From a virus (lineage: Monodnaviria; Loebvirae; Hofneiviricota; Faserviricetes; Tubulavirales; Inoviridae), in IMG/VR virus record IMGVR_UViG_2531839481_000001, positions 1 through 8,874 of that record: a stretch of DNA of 8,874 bases. One strand, given 5' to 3'. The position numbers and the translations under genes were made by a program. Shown one piece after another: positions 1 to 8,874 of the stretch (its first letter is position 1; every line of letters begins with the position of its first letter). The notes beneath the pieces were generated by a model that searched no databases, had not been told where the DNA came from, and saw nothing but the letters and a program-made list of their open reading frames with translations.

Positions 1-2
1 TT

Positions 3-34
3 GGTGCGCATAATGTCAACGCGTTATGTTGAAA
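3..34 (+). other. dif-like Xer recombination site (attL/attP1): exact dif XerC arm GGTGCGCATAA (3-13) + TGT, then 7 divergent bp and a degenerate XerD-like arm TTATGTTGAAA (24-34)
   Basis: E. coli dif is GGTGCGCATAA-TGTATA-TTATGTTAAAT (established). Window 3-16 matches the XerC arm plus the first 3 bp of the central region, then diverges where hybrid att sites of dif-integrating phages typically begin. Confidence 0.7.
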
Positions 35-68
35 AGGCCGCTGCGAAAATCGAATCCCGCAGCGGCCT
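35..68 (-). terminator. Perfect 11-bp stem hairpin (AGGCCGCTGCG / CGCAGCGGCCT, 12-nt loop); candidate rho-independent terminator for the - strand cargo gene and tip of the forked attP hairpin
   Basis: Arms 35-45 and 58-68 are exact reverse complements. On the - strand the stem is followed by TTTTC, and it lies just downstream of the stop of the CDS at 101-1030. Confidence 0.55.
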
Positions 69-70
69 CT

Positions 71-97
71 TTAGCATAACGTCATTGTGCGAACCAA
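71..97 (-). other. Inverted degenerate dif-like site (attP2-like): on - strand TTGGTTCGCACAA-TGACG-TTATGCTAA
   Basis: Reverse complement of 71-97 aligns with site 1: XerC-arm-like GGTTCGCACAA (85-95) is 9/11 to GGTGCGCATAA, XerD-arm-like TTATGCTAA (71-79). Positions 1-13 can pair with 85-97 at 11/13, forming an imperfect stem. Confidence 0.6.
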
Positions 98-100
98 TAG

Positions 101-1030
101 CTACTTTTTCGTATAACTCTCTTCGCATTTAGCCAAAAACAGCAGATTAGTAGCGGTTAAATGAAGGGTATAACTCGCTAAATACTCAGGAACTTTTGTT
201 ATTTCTGCCCCTTGTCCATGTCCACCTTCTTTATTTCGAATGGTTGGAATACCACTCTCAAGTAGAATTCTTATTGAAGAAAATTGATTCTGGAGGTATT
301 CAGGTACTAAATTATTTGCCAAACAACTGTTAATTAATTTTTTAGCTGTGTCAGTATCATTAAATTGCCAAGAATGTTTTTTATGTATGGCTTTCATTAG
401 ACTTTCAAAAGATTTGAGGCAATCATTTAAACATTCTTTATATCGCTGATGTCTATAATGCTCATGGGCGGATAAAAACTCATCGTTTGCTCCGTTATAA
501 CTCTTGTTCTTACCAAGAATCTGAAGCGTAGGCTTTACAACATCAGAATGAATGAATTGTGAGTCAACTTTAACCAACTCTCCTGACTCAAATTGATATC
601 CAAGACCTGCTTCTTTAAACCTGATATTAAGTTCTTCAATAGCATCATCAGGACTTTGCTTTACTGACCCTCTGAATTTCCACTCATTTGATCTTATATA
701 CCCGTCTATCAGTTTGAAACATATCTCAATGATATCCAAGCATTTTTCATGATCTCTCTCAGCTAGGAAATAGTCAAAAATTGCCCCGAAATTCGATTCA
801 GGATACTGTTTGAGAGAGAATACACCATATTCCTTACACAGCGTTTTATGAACGAGTCTGTAAAGCTTACTTGCTTCCGTTTCATAGTCACTATCTTCAC
901 CGATAGTATCTCTTACAATATGAACAACCTGAACACGAAATGCATTTGGTATATTCGTGTATTGGTAAACATCAGCTACTTCACCTCTTAATTTTTTTTG
1001 TCTTTTTGAAAATAATTCGAATATAGCCAA
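101..1030 (-). CDS. HEPN-like (Rx5H motif) abortive-infection-family candidate, AbiJ/Abi_C-like; phage cargo (moron) protein
   Basis: 309-aa ORF with no in-frame ATG until about residue 213; start is TTG at 1028-1030 preceded by GAGGA with 7-nt spacing. C-terminal RNKEGGHG fits the HEPN Rx4-6H signature. Markedly AT-rich compared with the phage backbone genes. Family assignment is from motif recognition only. Confidence 0.5.
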   Translation of the reverse strand: MAIFELFSKRQKKLRGEVADVYQYTNIPNAFRVQVVHIVRDTIGEDSDYETEASKLYRLVHKTLCKEYGVFSLKQYPESNFGAIFDYFLAERDHEKCLDIIEICFKLIDGYIRSNEWKFRGSVKQSPDDAIEELNIRFKEAGLGYQFESGELVKVDSQFIHSDVVKPTLQILGKNKSYNGANDEFLSAHEHYRHQRYKECLNDCLKSFESLMKAIHKKHSWQFNDTDTAKKLINSCLANNLVPEYLQNQFSSIRILLESGIPTIRNKEGGHGQGAEITKVPEYLASYTLHLTATNLLFLAKCEESYTKK

Positions 1031-1113
1031 TTTATAATCCTCAAAGATATGCCATTAATATGTCTGAGTTGATGAAAATCACACCGCTTTTATAGTCGTT
1101 TTCCACGGTGGAG

Positions 1114-1536
1114 TTACCAGTAATATGAGTTTCTTCTGTGCCACCAATAAAGAAGTCCGTATCCAATGATAAGAATTCCGAAAAACATCAACGACATTCC
1201 CCAGCCAGTTCCGTACCACGAAACCATATCATCGAAAACCAACCCACCCATTTCACGTACTCCGGCAGCTTCCTTAAGAATTGGTTTGAATACCGGAATC
1301 AGAAGGGCGATCGCCAGTGGAGCACCCCAGCGAACAAGACCTGTTTCCATTTTGATCCCGAAAAAGATCCCCGCACCGACAACAAGCAGCCAGACTATCA
1401 GGCCAGGCGCAGTTTCCAGTGCTGTTTGCCATTCAACATCGAAAGTTTTCATTAGCCAGGCAACAACTGCCAGACAGAAAGCAAATACGCCTACAACAAC
1501 CAGTTCAACGCCGCTTGTTTCGTTATTTCTACTCAT
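1114..1536 (-). CDS. Small integral membrane protein (about 4 predicted TM helices), unknown function; cargo partner of the HEPN-like protein
   Basis: 140-aa ORF with four long hydrophobic stretches (for example LVVVGVFAFCLAVVAWL, LIVWLLVVGAGIFFGI, GAPLAIALLIPVF, MSLMFFGILIIGYGLLYWW); ATG at 1534-1536 preceded by AAGGA with 8-nt spacing. The overlapping + strand ORFs are low-complexity P/S/T-rich antisense artefacts. Confidence 0.7.
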   Translation of the reverse strand: MSRNNETSGVELVVVGVFAFCLAVVAWLMKTFDVEWQTALETAPGLIVWLLVVGAGIFFGIKMETGLVRWGAPLAIALLIPVFKPILKEAAGVREMGGLVFDDMVSWYGTGWGMSLMFFGILIIGYGLLYWWHRRNSYYW

Positions 1537-1569
1537 CCTTTTGATCCTTTGTTGCTGTTCAAAATCCGC

Positions 1570-1607
1570 ACAATAAAGAACGTGCAGTGTAGGTAATACT
1601 GCACGTT
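1570..1607 (-). terminator. Rho-independent terminator candidate downstream of the repressor gene (10-bp perfect stem AACGTGCAGT / ACTGCACGTT, 9-nt loop, T-rich tail on - strand)
   Basis: Arms 1579-1588 and 1598-1607 are exact reverse complements; on the - strand the stem is followed by TTCTTTATTGT (1570-1578 complement). Confidence 0.55.
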
Positions 1608-1625
1608 AGTCTCATTCCTGAGACT
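1608..1625. other. Second short hairpin (7-bp stem AGTCTCA / TGAGACT, loop TTCC) immediately adjacent to the terminator
   Basis: Exact reverse-complement arms at 1608-1614 and 1619-1625. Confidence 0.4.
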
Positions 1626-1635
1626 GCTAAACCCT

Positions 1636-2082
1636 TTAATCTTCGCCTGACACTACTTTTTTCATAAACATTTTCGTACTGTAAGTATATGAACTTAATG
1701 CAGAAACTTGCCTTGCGAGAGCCAGAATATCTTGTTTATCCAGTGTTCTGATGTTCCACACAATGAAATTGTGGGCGTTAGTGGTTTCTTCATCAGTGTA
1801 ACCGTCTGCGGAAGTGATTAACTTCCTTTCAGTAGCTTCTTCTTTAACATCAATAGCATAGCCATAAGCAAGGGTGTTCAAGTCTGCACCAGTAATTTTA
1901 GCTATCTGAATTATGTCACTGAATTTAGGTTCAGTTTTGCCGGACGCTATTCTGACCAGTGTGCTAACGCTAATACCGGTTTTTTCGGCCAGTTCTTCAT
2001 AAGTCGAGTGTTCCAGAATTACCTTTTTGATACGTTCTGCTCTCTGCTTGTCCGCCATATCTTCATGCTCATTGTTGCCCAT
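1636..2082 (-). CDS. XRE/Cro-C1-type helix-turn-helix transcriptional regulator; candidate phage repressor divergent from gII
   Basis: 148-aa ORF with a classic HTH segment (EELAEKTGISVSTLVRIASGKTEPKFSDIIQIAKITG); ATG at 2080-2082 with GGAG 8 nt upstream; divergent orientation to the replication gene as in CTX-phi rstR/rstA. Confidence 0.8.
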   Translation of the reverse strand: MGNNEHEDMADKQRAERIKKVILEHSTYEELAEKTGISVSTLVRIASGKTEPKFSDIIQIAKITGADLNTLAYGYAIDVKEEATERKLITSADGYTDEETTNAHNFIVWNIRTLDKQDILALARQVSALSSYTYSTKMFMKKVVSGED

Positions 2083-2127
2083 CTACTTGGCTCCATCTTA
2101 ACAGTGGTTTTTCAATAGTTAGATTTG

Positions 2128-2184
2128 ATGCTCATTTCTGACAATTTAAACATTGCAAATGTATTGACTGTCAGAACTGAGCAT
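2128..2184. promoter_or_regulatory. 57-bp imperfect palindrome centred at 2156 between divergent repressor and gII; candidate operator and/or plus-strand origin hairpin
   Basis: Outer arms ATGCTCATTTCTGACA (2128-2143) and TGTCAGAACTGAGCAT (2169-2184) are reverse complements at 15/16; nested inner palindrome ACATT-gca-AATGT (2150-2162) shares the same centre. Confidence 0.55.
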
Positions 2185-2192
2185 ATTACATT
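2164..2192 (+). promoter_or_regulatory. Candidate sigma70 promoter for gII: -35 TTGACT (2164-2169), 17-bp spacer, -10 TACATT (2187-2192)
   Basis: 5/6 match at -35 and 4/6 at -10 with optimal spacing, about 60 bp upstream of the gII start; -35 overlaps the right arm of the palindrome. Confidence 0.4.
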
Positions 2193-2253
2193 GTGACCAT
2201 TCAATTTGCTCATAAATGACTATTGACACATATTTTGATGGGTGTGGCTACTT

Positions 2254-3306
2254 ATGATCGACTGGTTTACTGGAATCCTGCCTTGCACGCACCAACCGTT
2301 ACCGGCTGGTAGTGTCGTCAGCGTTGATGCTGATGGTGCAGTGGAGTGGGAAACAGTAAAACGGTTGACTGTTCGCGGTTCGTACGAATCTACAATGAAA
2401 GTAAGATCAGTTGGATCCGATGGCGAAGGCCGGGCAACACATCTTTATATTGATGGTAATCCGTCAAAATTTCTTCAGGGACATTCGGTTATTGGTTCCG
2501 ACGATTTGCAAGGACTGGTATTGACAGCTTACGCGAGAATACTGGCATTACTTCATATTCCCCATGACCTTCCGTCCTATCGTCAGGTAATGACAGGGCA
2601 ATATAAGGTTTCCCGTGTTGATATTAATTACATGTATTCATTGTCAACATTGGAAAATGTGCGGGCATGGCTTTATGCCGCAGAGTTTAAAGCAAAAACT
2701 CGTCATGGTCGCGCCTGTGGCAAAGGGGGAACGGTCTATTTGGGAAAAAACTCCCGTCGTTGGAGCCTGAAATTTTACTCTAAATATGATGAGCATACAT
2801 CTGGAAAAAAAGGGCACCAGATAGCAGATGAATTTGTTAACGCTGGTTTACTGGATTGGTCAAAAGATAAATTACGTATTGAATTAACATTAAGAACAAC
2901 TGAATTAATTGATTTGAATCTTACGCTTGGTAAAAACTGGAATATTGAGACGCCTAATAAAGTATTCTCTGACTATGTAGGGAGAATAGAAATGAATCAA
3001 AACACTATATTAACTGATGAAAAGATAATTAATCTCCCAAGAAAAATACAGTCTACATATTTGTTATGGAAGCAGGGCGCAAATATGAAAGAAATGCTTC
3101 CAAAGCCAACATTTTACAGGCATCGTAAAGAATTACTGTCTTTTGGTATAGATATTAATTTTTATTGTGAAGCCCCTGATTCAAATAATGTTATTCCATT
3201 AGTAAGAACACTTGAGGCTAAACCAGCCAAAATTCCATCATGGGTTTATGAGAAAGGTTTAATTTTCGATTATAACCGTATTTCACATGCCAGTAGCTGG
3301 CATTAA
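2254..3306 (+). CDS. gII: Replication initiation protein pII (rolling-circle nickase, Ff gene II family)
   Basis: Recalled M13 pII begins MID, as here (MIDWF) at ATG 2254. Shared motifs include PSKFLQGHSVIGSDDL (M13 PAKVLQGHNVFGTTDL) and NVIPLVR (M13 NVVPLVR). The ORF track extends to an upstream GTG at 2242, so the start is ambiguous by 12 nt. Confidence 0.85.
   Translation: MIDWFTGILPCTHQPLPAGSVVSVDADGAVEWETVKRLTVRGSYESTMKVRSVGSDGEGRATHLYIDGNPSKFLQGHSVIGSDDLQGLVLTAYARILALLHIPHDLPSYRQVMTGQYKVSRVDINYMYSLSTLENVRAWLYAAEFKAKTRHGRACGKGGTVYLGKNSRRWSLKFYSKYDEHTSGKKGHQIADEFVNAGLLDWSKDKLRIELTLRTTELIDLNLTLGKNWNIETPNKVFSDYVGRIEMNQNTILTDEKIINLPRKIQSTYLLWKQGANMKEMLPKPTFYRHRKELLSFGIDINFYCEAPDSNNVIPLVRTLEAKPAKIPSWVYEKGLIFDYNRISHASSWH
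2992..3306 (+). CDS. gX: pX, in-frame internal restart within gII (C-terminal 104 aa)
   Basis: In-frame ATG at 2992 gives a product starting MNQNTILTDEK, positionally and sequence-wise like M13 pX (MNIYDD...), with the same C-terminus as pII. Confidence 0.6.
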   Translation: MNQNTILTDEKIINLPRKIQSTYLLWKQGANMKEMLPKPTFYRHRKELLSFGIDINFYCEAPDSNNVIPLVRTLEAKPAKIPSWVYEKGLIFDYNRISHASSWH

Positions 3307-3317
3307 AGGAGAGTGAT

Positions 3318-3635
3318 ATGTCTAATTATGGTCTTTTCGTAAAAGGTAAGATGCTTGGTGCTCGTCAGCGTAATAAAATTAATGGGCAAGGTTATTATAA
3401 TGAAATTGGTATTGGCTTAGAGATCCCTGATGGCTTTGGTGGCACCAAGCAAGACCAGATCATTATCCGTGTATCACAAGCTCTGGTGAATTCCGGCGTA
3501 ATGAATCAGGCTAATAGCTTTATCGGAAAGTTAGTTCAGATCCCCGTTTATGTTCGTGTATGGTCAATGGAAGGTAGGGAAGGGGTAACTTATAACATTT
3601 CATCTGACGGTGGAATCACTGAAATAAAAGTTTAA
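3318..3635 (+). CDS. Gene-V-position protein, putative ssDNA-binding protein (function by synteny only)
   Basis: 105-aa ORF with strong RBS AGGAG (3307-3311) before ATG 3318, located between gII and gVII exactly where Ff gene V sits. The sequence does not obviously resemble recalled M13 pV. Confidence 0.5.
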   Translation: MSNYGLFVKGKMLGARQRNKINGQGYYNEIGIGLEIPDGFGGTKQDQIIIRVSQALVNSGVMNQANSFIGKLVQIPVYVRVWSMEGREGVTYNISSDGGITEIKV

Positions 3636-3637
3636 AT

Positions 3638-3724
3638 ATGGTTGATGTTATACAAATATTAATAGCGTCAGGCATTGTTATCTCATTTGGCCTCGGCGCA
3701 ATTACAGCGGGAGTTTTCCGTTAA
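3638..3724 (+). CDS. gVII: Minor coat protein pVII
   Basis: 28-aa hydrophobic peptide MVDVIQILIASGIVISFGLGAITAGVFR, comparable to recalled M13 pVII (…ALGIIAGGQR); start 3 nt after the gene-V stop; not in the ORF track because it is short. Confidence 0.7.
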   Translation: MVDVIQILIASGIVISFGLGAITAGVFR

Positions 3725-3819
3725 TGTATATAGCTTATTTCTTCGGGGCTTATACCTTTGGTTTTGCCCTTTTCTACGCGGTCGGTTCATTTAAATCATT
3801 TTCTGACCGCTTAATGTAA
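3724..3819 (+). CDS. gIX: Minor coat protein pIX
   Basis: 31-aa hydrophobic peptide MYIAYFFGAYTFGFALFYAVGSFKSFSDRLM; ATG overlaps the gVII stop (TAATG coupling), as in Ff. Confidence 0.65.
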   Translation: MYIAYFFGAYTFGFALFYAVGSFKSFSDRLM

Positions 3820-3838
3820 CCTTAATGGAGTTATTTAT

Positions 3839-4081
3839 ATGAAAGTTTTGTCTTTTGTTAAATCTAAAATTGCAGTAGCTTCAACAGCGCTTTTTGTTTC
3901 TGCGAGTTCTTTTGCGGCAGATGGGGCTACAGGCGGTACTGATTATGCAGGTCAGGCAATGGATGCATTACTGACTCAGGCAAATGATCTTATTGGTAAA
4001 GTATGGCCTGTCGTTGTTGCTGTGGTTGGTGCAGGCCTTGCCATTCGTATTTTTAAAAAATTCGCTTCCAAAGCAGTTTAA
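3839..4081 (+). CDS. gVIII: Major coat protein pVIII precursor
   Basis: 80-aa ORF with signal peptide ending SFA, acidic N-terminus, hydrophobic core and basic C-terminus [11 protein letters not shown]; the mature region resembles the recalled IKe-type coat (…WPVV…KKF.SKAV); GGAG RBS at 3827-3830. Confidence 0.9.
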
Positions 4082-4090
4082 AATTCACTT

Positions 4091-4114
4091 AGGGGCATTC
4101 GCTGCCCCTTTATT
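4091..4114 (+). terminator. Rho-independent terminator after gVIII (7-bp stem AGGGGCA / TGCCCCT, loop TTCGC, then TTTATT)
   Basis: Exact reverse-complement arms 4091-4097 and 4103-4109 followed by a T-rich tract; same position as the gene VIII terminator in Ff phages. Confidence 0.7.
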
Positions 4115-4127
4115 AAAGCGGGTTATT

Positions 4128-5372
4128 ATGAAAAGGAAAATATTAATTATTTCCTCTATTCTTATTTCTTCTTTTTCATATGCTGATTCATGGGAAAGCA
4201 TTACTAAATCTACTTTTCAAAGCTCTGCATATGCTGAAAGTAAGCAAATAACCAACCAAGATGGCACTAAACAAACTGTTTATTATATTGATGCAGCGAT
4301 GCAGGCTTCTGCCTGTCAGGGGGCTAAAGACAGTGCTCAGGGTGTTTTTACTCAGGTTAAACCAACTTATGAGGGAGTATGGCCTAACTCTGAATTCCGT
4401 CTTGTGTTTTCTGACGCTTGTACTTACAGCGACTCTCCAGGCCAGAAAGATAAATACTGGACTTTAACCGCTTATATTATTGGTGATATTCAACGATCCA
4501 TTCCTGATGAAAAACCTTCCGAGCCTACGCCTGAAGAGATTTGTGAAGCTAAACCCCCCGAAGAAGGTGTATTCAATAATGTCTATTCTTATGACGGCGA
4601 TCGTTATATTTATTATAACGGTTGTGAATATGAGGCCACTGGCGTCATTGTTTGCCAGAGTGATGGCACTGTTTGTGCTGCGACATGGAAGCCTACCGGA
4701 ACTGTAGCCGACCCTTCAGATAAGCCTTCTTCTCCTGCTGGCGATGGCGGTGATACTGGAGGCGGGGATACGGGTGGTGGTGATACTGGAGGAGGTGATA
4801 CAGGCGGTGGTAACCCAAGTGGCGGTTCTGGCGGTGGTAATGGCTCAAGTATTACCAAAGGAGATATTCAGTCAGCTATCGAAGGTGCTTCACCTAAAAT
4901 TGCCAGTGAGATTCATGATAAGTTAACAGAAAAAGACACCTCATCTGATGATAAAAAGTCGGCTGATGAACAGGCTAAAAATAATTTAAATCGTCTTGGT
5001 GACTCTATAAATAACCTTACTCGCGGAGCCGGACGTTTTGCTGATCCTTCTGGAGGTGATTCTCGTTATGGGAAGGGGGATTCTGAGTTAGATAGCGCTT
5101 CCACTTTAGCTGAATCTGAATTAGGAATTGCAAAGGATTCTCATGGCGCGTTATGGGAGGCTTTTTTAAATAAAGGTGCTATGTTGCCCAATTTACCCAA
5201 TGGTAATGGTTGTTCTGATTTTATCATTTTTGCAGGGGAGGTTTACCAGATTGACATTGGTTGCGATAAATTATTAACCATTAAAAATGCGCTTTCTTGG
5301 GTTTTTTATTGTTTAACATTCTGGTATGTCTTTACGTCTTTAACTTCATTGCTTCGTAAAGGGGGGGAATAA
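4128..5372 (+). CDS. gIII: Adsorption/minor coat protein pIII
   Basis: Start at ATG 4128 gives a signal peptide [19 protein letters not shown]; Gly-rich linker; the C-terminal membrane anchor (…[22 protein letters not shown]…[17 protein letters not shown]) resembles the recalled M13 pIII C-terminus. The ORF-track start at 3984 is an upstream in-frame extension through gVIII and the terminator. Confidence 0.85.
4752..4811 (+). repeat. 4 x 15-bp imperfect tandem repeat encoding (DTGGG)x4 in the pIII inter-domain linker
   Basis: Units gatactggaggcggg, gatacgggtggtggt, gatactggaggaggt, gatacaggcggtggt in the gIII frame. Confidence 0.8.
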
Positions 5373-5713
5373 TGCCTTTATTATTAGGTATCCCAGCATT
5401 GTTACGTTTTCTTATCGGTCTTGTCCCTTTATTTATTGGTTATATGGCGAGTTTTTTAGCCCGTCTTGCGACCAAAACAGGTTTAATAGCGGTTGCATTG
5501 ATCGCTTTAATTACAACAACTGTTACGCTTTTAATGCAATATCTTGCAGGGGTCATGTATAACGGTTTACCTGCTGATTTTTCACATTTAATGTCCTCTG
5601 TATTACCTGACCATTTTCAAGCCTGTATTAACGTTATTATGGTTACTCGCATCAGTGTTTTTGTTTTCGATTTAAAGAAAAAATTCCTTGATTATGCAAA
5701 CAGGGTGATTTAA
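5372..5713 (+). CDS. gVI: Minor coat protein pVI
   Basis: 113-aa hydrophobic protein beginning [14 protein letters not shown] (recalled M13 pVI begins MPVLLGIPLLLRFL); ATG overlaps the gIII stop (TAATG). Confidence 0.9.
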   Translation: MPLLLGIPALLRFLIGLVPLFIGYMASFLARLATKTGLIAVALIALITTTVTLLMQYLAGVMYNGLPADFSHLMSSVLPDHFQACINVIMVTRISVFVFDLKKKFLDYANRVI

Positions 5714-6808
5714 ATGGCTGTTCATGTAGTAACAGGTAAATTAGGCTCAGGTAAGACATTGGTTAGTGTTTCCAAAATACAGGAAAGACTTGCTAAGGGT
5801 TGTCCTGTTGCCACTAACCTAGACCTTAAATTGCATAATATGCCAATGGTAGGACGTTATGCGAAAAAAACGCGCGTTATTCGCGTTCCTGACAAGCCTT
5901 CATTAAATGATTTACTGGCTATTGGTATTGGAAATACATCTTACGATGAATCCCGCAATGGCCTTCTCGTGCTTGATGAATGTGGTACTTGGTTTAATTC
6001 CCGTTCATGGGGCGATAAAGACAGACAGCCGGTTATTGACTGGTTTTTACATGCCCGTAAATTAGGCTGGGATATTATATTTTTGATTCAGGATATTTCT
6101 ATTATGGATAAGCAAGCGCGTCTGGCGCTTGCTGAACATGTTGTGTATTGTCGCCGCTCTGATAAATTAAACATCCCTTTTATTGGCTCCATTATAAATT
6201 TAGTTTCAGGGGCGCGATTTTCCTTGCCAAAGGTACACTTTGGTATTGTTAAATATGGTGATAATGTTAATTCAATCACTGTTGATAAATGGATATATAC
6301 CGGTAAATCTCTTTACTCTGCTTACAATACCAAACAAACTTTCACAGATAACTATCCTCACGGCGCATTTTCGATTTTGCCACCATTTATCACACACGGT
6401 CAGTTTTCTGTTCACAGAGGGATTAATTATTATATGCGTCTCACTAAAATTTATTTTCGCAAATCGAACCGTCTTATATTAATGCTTTCTTTTCTGGCGC
6501 TGGGGCTTGGACTTGGTTTCTGGTTACAATCTGGTAAGAGTGCTGATGAACTCTCGGCTGTTAAATCTGCTCATGCTGAACAGGTGAGGGCGGCAATACC
6601 TGATAGTGCCGGCGATTTACCAAGACTCTCTATTAACTCTTTCTCTCAGCTTGGTTTTGATGTTTCCGTTACGTTTGTTGATGCTAAGGGTATGAAATAC
6701 CAGTATTTTGATTTAATTAAAGATGGTTATTCCGTTGATATTAAAGATGCCTGCCGAATTGTTATCAGAAAAGGCCGTTATTTACAAAACGTCACCTGCC
6801 AGGAGTAA
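5714..6808 (+). CDS. gI: Assembly ATPase pI (Zot-like, Walker A GKLGSGKT)
   Basis: 364-aa ORF with extended near-identity blocks to recalled M13 pI (…VTGKLGSGKTLVSV…LLVLDECGTWFN…QPIIDWFLHARKLGWDIIFL…); starts immediately after the gVI stop. Confidence 0.95.
   Translation: MAVHVVTGKLGSGKTLVSVSKIQERLAKGCPVATNLDLKLHNMPMVGRYAKKTRVIRVPDKPSLNDLLAIGIGNTSYDESRNGLLVLDECGTWFNSRSWGDKDRQPVIDWFLHARKLGWDIIFLIQDISIMDKQARLALAEHVVYCRRSDKLNIPFIGSIINLVSGARFSLPKVHFGIVKYGDNVNSITVDKWIYTGKSLYSAYNTKQTFTDNYPHGAFSILPPFITHGQFSVHRGINYYMRLTKIYFRKSNRLILMLSFLALGLGLGFWLQSGKSADELSAVKSAHAEQVRAAIPDSAGDLPRLSINSFSQLGFDVSVTFVDAKGMKYQYFDLIKDGYSVDIKDACRIVIRKGRYLQNVTCQE
6434..6808 (+). CDS. gXI: pXI, in-frame internal restart within gI
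   Basis: In-frame ATG at 6434 gives MRLTKIYFRKSNRL…, matching the position and sequence of recalled M13 pXI (MKLTKIYLKKFSRV…), with a TM segment following. Confidence 0.6.
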   Translation: MRLTKIYFRKSNRLILMLSFLALGLGLGFWLQSGKSADELSAVKSAHAEQVRAAIPDSAGDLPRLSINSFSQLGFDVSVTFVDAKGMKYQYFDLIKDGYSVDIKDACRIVIRKGRYLQNVTCQE

Positions 6809-6815
6809 TATTGTT

Positions 6816-8081
6816 ATGCGTTTATTTTTCATTGCTATCTTATTCACTTATTCTTTTTGCGTTTCTGCTGAGACTGTTAATCTTAATAATTCATCCGTTC
6901 GCTCATTTGTCCAGTGGTATTCATCAAAAACTGGCAAGCCCGTTATTGTTAACCCTGATGTTAAAGGAGCCGTAACGGTATTTAATGCTGATGTTAATCC
7001 CACAAATATTGATAATTTCTTTAAATCTGTACTGAATGCTAACGGATTTGTCATGCTTTCCGGCAATCCTGCGGTAGTCTCTTTGCCGTCAAAATTACCA
7101 TCACAGATGGCGTCAGACCTTGATGATGCTGATATTCGGCCTTATGACTCTTTCCCGTCTGAGCCATCTTATCAGTCAGCGCCAGTGGTGTTTACTGTCA
7201 GAAATTTTAAGCTGACAAAAGTAAGATCGTCTGATGTTCAACAACTGGTTAAAATTTATCTGGATTCTAATGGCGGTGGTAATGTTGTGGATTATCCAGG
7301 CAATAACTCCCTGATTGTTTCCGCACCTGACGAGCTGCTTCCCGTCCTTTCCGATTTCATCAATTCAGTGGATGTTGCCCGCGATCAGGTTTTGATTCAG
7401 TCGCTGATGTTTGAAACCAGTCTGTCGGATGGTGTTGATTTGTCGTTTGCAGCCGGTTCTGCATCCGGGCATAAAGTAGCAGGGGGTTTTAATACTTCAG
7501 CGTTGGGTAGCGCGTTGTCGACTGCAGGCGGCTCTTTTGGCATTTTTGATGGTAATGTTCTGGCCGTATCCCTGCGTGCGGTGCAGAGTAACTCCCGGTC
7601 TAAGGTGATTTCAACGCCTCGGATTCTTACTCAGTCTGGTCAGACAGGCTATATTTCTGTTGGTAAAAATGTACCCTTTATCACGGGTAAAGTTACGGGT
7701 GAATCTGCCGGGGTAAATAATCCGTTTCAGACCATTGAGCGTCATGATGTTGGCGTATCTCTGAAGGTGACGCCTGTTGTTATGGGGAACGGCCAGCTTG
7801 TACTTACTATTGATACCCGCGCTGATTCCATCAGCAACGATGATCAGGCATCTGATATTATTACGAACCAACGTCAGATACAGACTACAGTTCAGATTAA
7901 GGATGGCCAGACGCTCTTACTCGGTGGGCTGATTGATTCATCATCCAGCAATGCTGACCGTTCTGTACCGTTTATCAGTAAAATTCCGGTGATTGGCTGG
8001 CTTTTCAGGAGTAAAGCTGACAGTAATGAGCAACGTATTATGTATGTCCTGCTGACCGCTCATATTATTCGCGCGCTTTGA
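6816..8081 (+). CDS. gIV: Outer-membrane secretin pIV
   Basis: Start at ATG 6816 (AGGAG at 6801-6805) gives a signal peptide MRLFFIAILFTYSFCVSA. Strong similarity to recalled M13 pIV (…SVGKNVPFITGKVTGESAGVNNPFQTIER… versus M13 …SVGQNVPFITGRVTGESANVNNPFQTIER…). The ORF-track start at 6723 is an in-frame extension overlapping gI. Confidence 0.95.
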   Translation: MRLFFIAILFTYSFCVSAETVNLNNSSVRSFVQWYSSKTGKPVIVNPDVKGAVTVFNADVNPTNIDNFFKSVLNANGFVMLSGNPAVVSLPSKLPSQMASDLDDADIRPYDSFPSEPSYQSAPVVFTVRNFKLTKVRSSDVQQLVKIYLDSNGGGNVVDYPGNNSLIVSAPDELLPVLSDFINSVDVARDQVLIQSLMFETSLSDGVDLSFAAGSASGHKVAGGFNTSALGSALSTAGGSFGIFDGNVLAVSLRAVQSNSRSKVISTPRILTQSGQTGYISVGKNVPFITGKVTGESAGVNNPFQTIERHDVGVSLKVTPVVMGNGQLVLTIDTRADSISNDDQASDIITNQRQIQTTVQIKDGQTLLLGGLIDSSSSNADRSVPFISKIPVIGWLFRSKADSNEQRIMYVLLTAHIIRAL

Positions 8082-8230: not shown

Positions 8231-8479
8231 ATGTCTGTAAAAAGCAGGGTACGCGACCGCCTTCCCAGTGGTCATCTGAAGTCTTATCGACGTGTTGGTT
8301 CACACTTTACCAGTTGTTCCAGATGGTTTGATAAATCGCCGTCCTGGTATCGTAATATGATGTTGACCCGACCGGAACGCCGTGAAGTCAGAAAGCTTCT
8401 TAATCAGGTCTTGCATGGTCGTGATGCTGACGGTATAGCATTTCCTGTCAGTAACAAGCCGTTTGCATGGTGGTGGTGA
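8231..8479 (+). CDS. Hypothetical small basic Arg/Trp-rich protein (82 aa), unknown function
   Basis: ATG at 8231 preceded by AGAGG with 5-nt spacing; no similarity to Ff proteins that I recognise; lies in the region that is non-coding intergenic DNA in Ff phages. Confidence 0.35.
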   Translation: MSVKSRVRDRLPSGHLKSYRRVGSHFTSCSRWFDKSPSWYRNMMLTRPERREVRKLLNQVLHGRDADGIAFPVSNKPFAWWW

Positions 8480-8858: not shown

Positions 8859-8874
8859 TTGGTGCGCATAATGT
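8859..8874 (+). other. Second copy of the dif XerC arm (TTGGTGCGCATAATGT), truncated by the window edge; attR / chromosomal dif candidate
   Basis: Identical to positions 1-16; contains GGTGCGCATAA + TGT of E. coli dif. Confidence 0.7.

Follow-up and report, generated by a model that had tools for sequence, protein, structure and literature searches.

The window analysed here, the whole 8874-base stretch of IMG/VR record IMGVR_UViG_2531839481_000001, represents a single unit of a filamentous prophage (an inovirus) of Escherichia coli. We describe the gene at its left end, which encodes an AbiJ-like protein of 309 amino acids (aa), together with the adjoining gene for a 140-aa membrane protein. 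An exact 16-nucleotide (nt) direct repeat, TTGGTGCGCATAATGT, is present at positions 1-16 and 8859-8874 and bounds a unit of 8858 bp; the window thus corresponds to precisely one prophage unit, which was probably either excised from a tandem array or runs from attL to attR. The repeat includes the XerC-arm sequence GGTGCGCATAA of E. coli dif, and a dif-like site lies within window positions 1-35. In E. coli chromosomes near-identical DNA adjoins hipBA, frequently as tandem copies. The plus strand carries the phage genes gII (Phage_CRI and G2P_X_C domains), gV, gVIII, gIII, gVI, gI/Zot and the gIV secretin gene. The initial annotation had placed two open reading frames (ORFs) on the minus strand, between the att structure and a helix-turn-helix (HTH) repressor gene. 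Both the ORFs and their position were confirmed, and RefSeq gives them identical ends (WP_000963948.1, 309 aa; WP_001618449.1, 140 aa).

Table 1. Features of the left end of the inovirus prophage unit (window coordinates).
Feature	Position	Strand	Remarks
att structure	1-99	.	two inverted dif-like sites (3-35, 70-99) flanking a G+C-rich hairpin (36-72)
Exchangeable single-gene cassette	99-1113	-	AbiJ-like gene plus 83-nt upstream spacer; homology breaks in related prophages
Gene of 309-aa AbiJ-NTD4 + HEPN (Abi_C/DUF7014) protein, STM4504/CBY_0614 family	101-1030	-	TTG start
HEPN domain, residues 170-305	116-523	-	Pfam DUF7014 (259 bits, 1e-77)/Abi_C
RNKEGGHG, Rx5H catalytic signature of HEPN (R265, N266, H271), residues 265-272	215-238	-	sequence
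AbiJ_NTD4 domain, residues 5-168	527-1018	-	Pfam PF18863, 94.8 bits (cut-off 34), E = 9e-27
GAGGA ribosome-binding site	1038-1042	-	7 nt ahead of the TTG start; sequence
Gene of 140-aa membrane protein with four transmembrane segments	1114-1536	-	ATG start; right edge of the cargo slot, outside the cassette
Spacer between repressor gene and membrane gene	1537-1635	-	two hairpins, the second (~1581-1610) with a T-rich stretch after it on the minus strand
HTH (Cro/CI-type) repressor gene	1636-2082	-	Pfam HTH_3 1.5e-9, Phage_CI_repr; same strand as the 309-aa and 140-aa genes

The TTG start proposed initially for the 309-aa gene is credible because the GAGGA ribosome-binding site lies 7 nt upstream and because its homologues have the N-terminus MAIFELFSKRQ in common. 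The GC content of the gene is 34.7% (26.8% at third codon positions) as compared with 40.8% for the backbone, a modest shift; the phage gene VI has 35.4%. The description of the locus as an AT-rich two-gene cargo holds for this gene and fails for the membrane gene, which at 46.6% is GC-richer than the backbone. Comparison with the Salmonella copy gave a ratio of nonsynonymous to synonymous substitution rates (dN/dS) of 0.117, and the gene is under purifying selection. Among 5426 complete E. coli genomes 18 carry it, each with an uninterrupted ORF of at least 99% identity.

The 309-aa protein matched NCBIfam NF046078 ('STM4504/CBY_0614 family protein') over residues 23-300 with 457.8 bits against a cut-off of 150, covering positions 1-280 of the 281 in the profile. 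Besides the two domains found in the protein itself (Table 1), precomputed Pfam hits to Abi_C (PF14355.13) together with AbiJ_NTD4 were present in 120/120 listed homologues, including one that is 99% identical. Residues R265, H271 and G272 of the catalytic signature were invariant, and N266 was at least 90% conserved, in sets of 30 and 44 sequences reaching down to 36% identity; the set of 30 comprised homologues from proteobacteria, cyanobacteria, Poribacteria, Acidobacteria and one Methanothrix metagenome-assembled genome. A structure model predicted from an alignment of 59 sequences, all with at least 61% identity, was confident over residues 24-150, gave the HEPN domain as an all-alpha up-and-down helical bundle and placed R265-x5-H271 ahead of the terminal helix (residues 282-305). 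A sequence search of the Protein Data Bank with the family profile returned nothing meaningful, and Foldseek comparison of both models with BFVD gave no match at E <=0.001. The HEPN Rx4-6H motif and the kinship with AbiJ/Abi_C proteins suggested in the initial annotation are borne out by the NF046078, AbiJ_NTD4 and DUF7014 matches and by the invariant R265 and H271; the lack of a HEPN hit or fold, or a motif not conserved among homologues, would have spoken against them, and on both counts the outcome favours the HEPN call. In contrast, the initial annotation had not recognised the module as a named system, and this view did not stand. The fusion of AbiJ-NTD4 to an AbiJ-type HEPN domain was defined on the prototype CBY_0614 by Anantharaman et al. 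in 2013 (PMC3710099) and NCBI now names the family. In one recent RefSeq record this WP accession is called 'abortive infection family protein'.

Pairwise comparison of prophages with different cargos located the edges of the unit to which this gene belongs. Homology stops at about position 98, the final base of the inverted dif-like arm (...GCGAACCAAT), and restarts at 1089-1114, where the membrane gene has its stop codon. This delimits the mobile unit to ~99-1113, one gene with its own ribosome-binding site and spacer. The flanks (1-98 and 1114-2300) are 93-97% identical in related prophages and the interval between them holds seven different gene sets, which makes it a variable att-adjacent locus of fixed place, differing cargos and conserved flanks, with the att structure as its left edge. 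The other cargos found beside the membrane gene are a 369-aa ORFan in UTI89 (which has the same repressor and replication genes), a pair of 155 and 123 aa in MS8345, the ECs_2282 zinc-ribbon protein with a 159-aa protein in 510016 and B1-56, a pair of 89 and 240 aa in strain 8178, a set of 54, 105 and 257 aa in a Yersinia enterocolitica inovirus and, in E. coli M9 (locus 1462-2533), a 264-aa protein with a DpnII/MboI-type nuclease domain next to a DUF6953 protein. Judged by the matches of its 264-aa protein (Pfam 6.9e-59; PADLOC Aga_Helical-REase 1.3e-34; PDC-S35 at the N-terminus), the M9 cargo is a second defence-like occupant of the slot. The earlier idea of a horizontally acquired cargo beside the att structure of a dif-integrating inovirus was thus upheld as regards the cargo, which is limited to ~99-1113 and excludes the membrane gene; the accompanying comparison with ctxAB is approximate, as ctxAB lies on the other side of attP. 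In addition, NCTC9104, which has another regulatory gene and another structural module than NC101, contains block 1-1637 at 99.3% identity, and att, cassette, membrane gene and spacer can therefore also move together. As a separate observation, the MS8345 cargo (locus 3099-3983) was present with at least 99% identity in 15 E. coli genomes and had relatives of 80-90% identity at 73 places on E. coli plasmids; this cassette is therefore common to inoviruses and plasmids.

Homologues of the 309-aa protein were found in several other settings. Salmonella has a 96% identical protein, encoded by a prophage of this kind that also possesses the membrane gene. A Vibrio cholerae protein, 74% identical, lies on a replicon of ~1.09 Mb within arrays of small cassettes that include ParE/Phd, MqsRA, acetyltransferase and DUF645 genes, with an integron-type integrase close by; we read these arrays as the chromosome-2 superintegron. 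At one V. cholerae locus (L068) the AbiJ-like gene adjoins a DUF4145 (HEPN-family) gene. A Klebsiella aerogenes plasmid has a lone 92% homologue next to ccdAB, and a 74% homologue forms with a tyrosine integrase a two-gene islet downstream of proA (proBA) in several Enterobacteriaceae. Deposited phage genomes contained distant relatives only, for example a protein of Clostridium phage phiCp-A with 35% identity annotated as 'putative abortive infection protein'. Identity remains at 69-76% in distant gamma- and deltaproteobacteria, where every motif residue is kept. The prediction that homologues would reside in mobile or defence contexts agrees with the superintegron, plasmid, integrase islet and prophage locations. 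At 55 AbiJ-like loci in species-representative genomes we found no membrane protein, inovirus gene or recurrent neighbour, and together with the solitary integron, plasmid and islet copies these loci show a single gene with no conserved partner. A single gene on many kinds of mobile element is the pattern expected of a stand-alone defence gene. We hold with high confidence that the 309-aa protein is an AbiJ-family HEPN protein and that its gene is a single-gene cassette.

On balance we consider it likely that 101-1030 encodes a self-contained, single-polypeptide AbiJ (Abi_C) abortive-infection nuclease, carried in a cassette of ~1 kb by a dif-integrating (XerCD-dependent) inovirus of the CUS-1/Ypf-phi group. 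The direct basis for this is the domain architecture, the HEPN fold, the invariant catalytic residues, the purifying selection, the cassette boundaries, the independence from the membrane gene and the solitary copies on mobile elements; we infer the RNase activity, the defence phenotype, the sensor role of the N-terminal domain, the dimerisation and the route of expression. An RNase function directed against phages or other mobile genetic elements is likewise probable by analogy with characterized relatives. SadR, an Abi_C protein, is an RNase that requires R225, N226 and H232 of RNEYGDAH both to cleave RNA and to protect against phages and plasmids (PMC13590631), and the 309-aa protein may by the same token be a metal-independent endoribonuclease. 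AbiJ of Lactococcus lactis confers phage resistance (PMC13064643), and HepS provides a precedent for a prophage-borne, single-protein HEPN abortive-infection system (PMC13043305). Following the model of an N-terminal sensor and a HEPN effector put forward for AbiJ-type proteins (PMC3710099), the AbiJ_NTD4 domain is presumed to be the sensory or regulatory part. Transcription of the gene in the lysogen would run leftward, as for the repressor and membrane genes on that strand, and the protein would stay idle, with NTD4 restraining the HEPN RNase, until NTD4 senses some constituent or condition of a phage or another mobile element that invades the cell and frees the RNase. The HEPN domain at the C-terminus, which would probably dimerise to bring two RN-x4-H motifs together, would then cut RNA and stop translation, and the infection would be aborted to the benefit of the host population on which the non-lytic prophage depends. 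The adjoining membrane protein would not be needed for this function.

Some observations weigh against an AbiJ-type defence nuclease at this locus. A scan for promoters and terminators gave no minus-strand promoter for the 309-aa gene or the membrane gene, nor any promoter-like site for the former, and expression in the lysogen is an assumption. A scan with Abi_C PF14355.11 scored 12.8 bits (0.14), below the 24-bit cut-off, the region being taken by DUF7014; we take the discrepancy with the precomputed Abi_C hits as a difference between Pfam versions. In the predicted model the catalytic loop (residues 260-275) has a predicted local distance difference test score below 50, and the juxtaposition of R and H remains beyond the model. 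PADLOC-DB v2 gave the 309-aa protein no match to a named, validated system and none of the PADLOC AbiJ models matched it; the only hit was the candidate PDC-S32 (4.9e-10, residues 6-223), in the N-terminal part. This agrees with PMC13590631, in which PADLOC is reported to match no Abi_C protein. AbiJ-NTD4 proteins made up 3/2815 of the Abi_C proteins in that study, and the literature searched contained no experimental test of any member of the subfamily. Finally, Pfam and PADLOC scans detected no recognisable defence domain in five of the six other cargos, and the slot position alone is therefore no sign of defence.

The initial annotation had treated the HEPN and membrane proteins as a pair, which would make them a two-gene defence or superinfection-exclusion system in which the protein with four transmembrane (TM) segments acts, for example, as membrane effector or antitoxin partner. 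The genes adjoin on the same strand with a gap of 83 nt, both occur together in Salmonella, the near-identical block 1-1637 moves between two inovirus backbones in E. coli, and membrane effectors are common in abortive-infection systems (PMC12715192). Their distributions, however, are uncoupled. The membrane gene was found in 128 of the 5426 E. coli genomes, as against the 18 with the AbiJ-like gene. Copies with 73-98% nucleotide identity to that of the window adjoin at least six unrelated cargos. The AbiJ-like family comprises 3230 clusters from many phyla, whereas the membrane family has 49 clusters, all with Enterobacterales source names. AbiJ homologues elsewhere adjoin no homologue or analogue of the membrane protein, an upstream ORF with at least two TM segments being present at only 2 of 41 loci, and the cassette boundaries leave the membrane gene outside. 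We rejected the HEPN plus membrane-protein system on these distributions; such a system is very improbable, and functional coupling between the two proteins is in our view most unlikely. An alternative that keeps a role for the membrane gene would make the att-adjacent interval of CUS-1/Ypf-phi-type Enterobacterales inoviruses a one-cassette defence hotspot with the 4-TM protein as shared component (membrane effector, gatekeeper or exclusion factor). This seems quite improbable, and if it were true the ORFan cassettes (369; 155 + 123; zinc-ribbon + 159; 89 + 240 aa) would be new defence sensors acting on one effector.

The remaining explanations concern what a lone HEPN protein would do. It might attack competing elements with single-stranded DNA (ssDNA), such as filamentous phages and conjugative or transforming DNA, and thus serve competition between inoviruses rather than defence against lytic double-stranded DNA phages. 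The mutations that confer escape from L. lactis AbiJ and from SadR lie in single-strand annealing proteins (PMC13064643, PMC13590631), SadR also reduces plasmid transformation (PMC13590631), and arrays of competing integrative mobile elements exploiting Xer (IMEX) occur at dif sites (PMC12715192). However, the N-terminal domains of AbiJ and SadR differ from NTD4, so their triggers are not transferable to it, the carrier phage itself replicates via ssDNA and must escape self-triggering, and the sequence says nothing on the trigger; we regard ssDNA targeting as unlikely. That the HEPN protein is chiefly an addiction or stabilisation toxin with the N-terminal domain as built-in inhibitor, penalising the loss of an unstable episomal or tandem prophage, is quite unlikely. 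No antitoxin candidate was seen, there being no MNT or other conserved small partner gene adjoining, no repeat RNAs and no Rfam match with E below 0.07, and so no sign of an RNA antitoxin; furthermore, a lone stable polypeptide cannot by itself give post-segregational killing, and solitary chromosomal copies are common. Two toxin-antitoxin arrangements were also rejected. For a HEPN-MNT type II/VII system, no ORF in 1-1640 had a nucleotidyltransferase domain, the neighbours being the att hairpin and the 4-TM gene; for a system resembling type III in the style of AbiF, AbiV or ToxIN, no tandem repeats were detected in 1-2300 (score >=30). An inert passenger or decaying DNA could account for a gene that is AT-rich against its surroundings, rare in E. 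coli and devoid of an evident promoter, but the ORF is intact and nearly identical in 18/18 genomes, the dN/dS is low and the protein keeps its motif residues invariant in distant gamma- and deltaproteobacteria, which leaves this explanation extremely unlikely.

Prediction confirmed the earlier description of the 140-aa product as a small 4-TM membrane protein, with helices at residues 9-32, 36-62, 67-90 and 111-137. Its gene is under strong purifying selection (dN/dS 0.024), and its distribution marks it as conserved in this inovirus lineage, either as an accessory or as a backbone gene. The protein had no match in Pfam, NCBIfam or PADLOC, PHROG gave a single match, to a family without assigned function, a tblastn search of deposited phage genomes returned nothing, and an exhaustive hidden Markov model search of 1.84 billion representatives gave 41 matches, all unnamed. 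A role in superinfection exclusion or regulation is a guess. The spacer 1537-1635 travels with the membrane gene between backbones, even beside a differing regulatory gene, and may have a regulatory role. Its second hairpin (ACGTGCAGT...ACTGCACGT) is followed on the minus strand by TCTTTATT and resembles a terminator or attenuator.

At the other side of the cassette, the inverted dif-like arrangement of the att structure is known from XerCD-dependent phages such as CTX-phi and Ypf-phi (PMC4266046). As ssDNA, positions 1-99 fold into a long imperfect hairpin (-32.4 kcal/mol, z = -8.4) and no shuffled sequence was equally stable. On the minus strand this hairpin is followed by TTTTC and could be a terminator of the leftward cargo transcript. 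Searches with positions 1-2200 gave 484 matching places on E. coli plasmids, to which the AbiJ gene contributed 0, the membrane gene 3 and the repressor region 7; most of them therefore come from 1-100 or 1031-1113, most likely from the dif-like and hairpin region 1-100. The same repressor region is present in NZ_CP128883.1, a 9565-bp extrachromosomal record of E. coli TUM14759; this is probably a related inovirus whose replicative form was assembled as a 'plasmid'.

Comparison of 1636-8081 with related prophages revealed a mosaic with a repressor of the CUS-1/NC101 type (96.6% amino acid identity). The prophages of NCTC9104 and Y. enterocolitica have DUF5455 and Zot genes of the same lengths as gVI (113 aa) and gI (364 aa), and the DNA of gene I shows 75.8% identity to Lineavirus I2-2. 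In the attachment protein gene gIII, 15-nt tandem repeats at 4745-4841 encode the Gly-rich (GGDT)n linker typical of inovirus pIII. After the secretin gene there is an 82-aa ORF (8231-8479, plus strand) with the size and place of the 82-aa hypothetical protein of the NC101 and MS8345 prophages, and it may be the YPO2280a/YPO2281-type gene of the opposite prophage end; a Pfam scan gave no match for it and PADLOC only a weak JetB match (3.4e-4).

The sharply bounded slot in the CUS-1/Ypf-phi lineage of Enterobacterales and its AbiJ-NTD4 occupant appear not to have been described in the literature searched. An AbiJ-type nuclease there would give a concrete and testable function to the long-unexplained att-end genes of CUS-1/Ypf-phi-type filamentous prophages, which occur in extra-intestinal pathogenic E. 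coli, in Salmonella and, as Ypf-phi, in Yersinia pestis. As in Vibrio, these very small prophages of Enterobacterales have a sharply bounded exchangeable slot able to take up probable anti-phage genes, and the cassette offers a naturally minimal setting in which the AbiJ-NTD4 subfamily could first be tested by experiment. This extends known biology and introduces no new principle.

The closest known system is the STM4504/CBY_0614 family itself, of which the window protein is a member with the same two-domain architecture, RN-x4-H motif and single-gene organisation; in the literature searched, no filamentous prophage of E. coli or Salmonella was described as a carrier of this family. SadR of Staphylococcus aureus (PMC13590631) is alike in having a C-terminal Abi_C-type HEPN domain with an R-N-...-H motif and in being a single gene borne by a mobile element (SCCmec). 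By its description it differs in its motif, RNEYGDAH (Rx6H) as against RNKEGGHG (Rx5H) here, in the type of its N-terminal domain and in its Gram-positive host phylum. AbiJ of L. lactis (Abi-859), by description the founding Abi_C/HEPN member, is also a single-gene determinant of abortive infection, borne on a plasmid, and its mechanism is itself unknown (PMC13064643). HepS, from Gifsy-1 (PMC13043305), and Tha, from prophages of S. aureus (PMC11087260), are members of other HEPN families, lack AbiJ-NTD4 and are carried by tailed prophages; their triggers are known (tail proteins), and the target of HepS is the anticodon loop of tRNAs.

With regard to the slot, the initial annotation had called a defence module on an inovirus unusual, but defence cargo in variable loci of such phages has already been published for Vibrio (PMC11630473, PMC12715192) and for Pf (PMC11341870). 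The hypervariable loci of Vibrio dif-inoviruses (PMC11630473; pHVRs, PMC12715192) and the Pf modules (KKP, PMC11341870) are likewise slots beside the att or lysogeny end of small XerCD-dependent prophages, and they hold diverse cargos including abortive-infection, restriction-modification and toxin-antitoxin genes. The slot of the window differs from them in its Enterobacterales hosts, its CUS-1/Ypf-phi lineage and its single short cassette between the att hairpin and a conserved 4-TM gene. Nearest in position are orf1/orf1a of CUS-1, which we mapped by inference onto UTI89 genes, and YPO2271/YPO2272 of Ypf-phi, which lie between att and the repressor gene as the window cargo does (PMC4266046). 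The list of membrane-protein homologues contained no Y. pestis protein and Ypf-phi probably lacks the 4-TM gene. These att-adjacent ORFs were noted in the 2014 Ypf-phi review (PMC4266046) as differing between both phages and as being of unknown function, whereas the window has a recognisable AbiJ-type gene at the same position.

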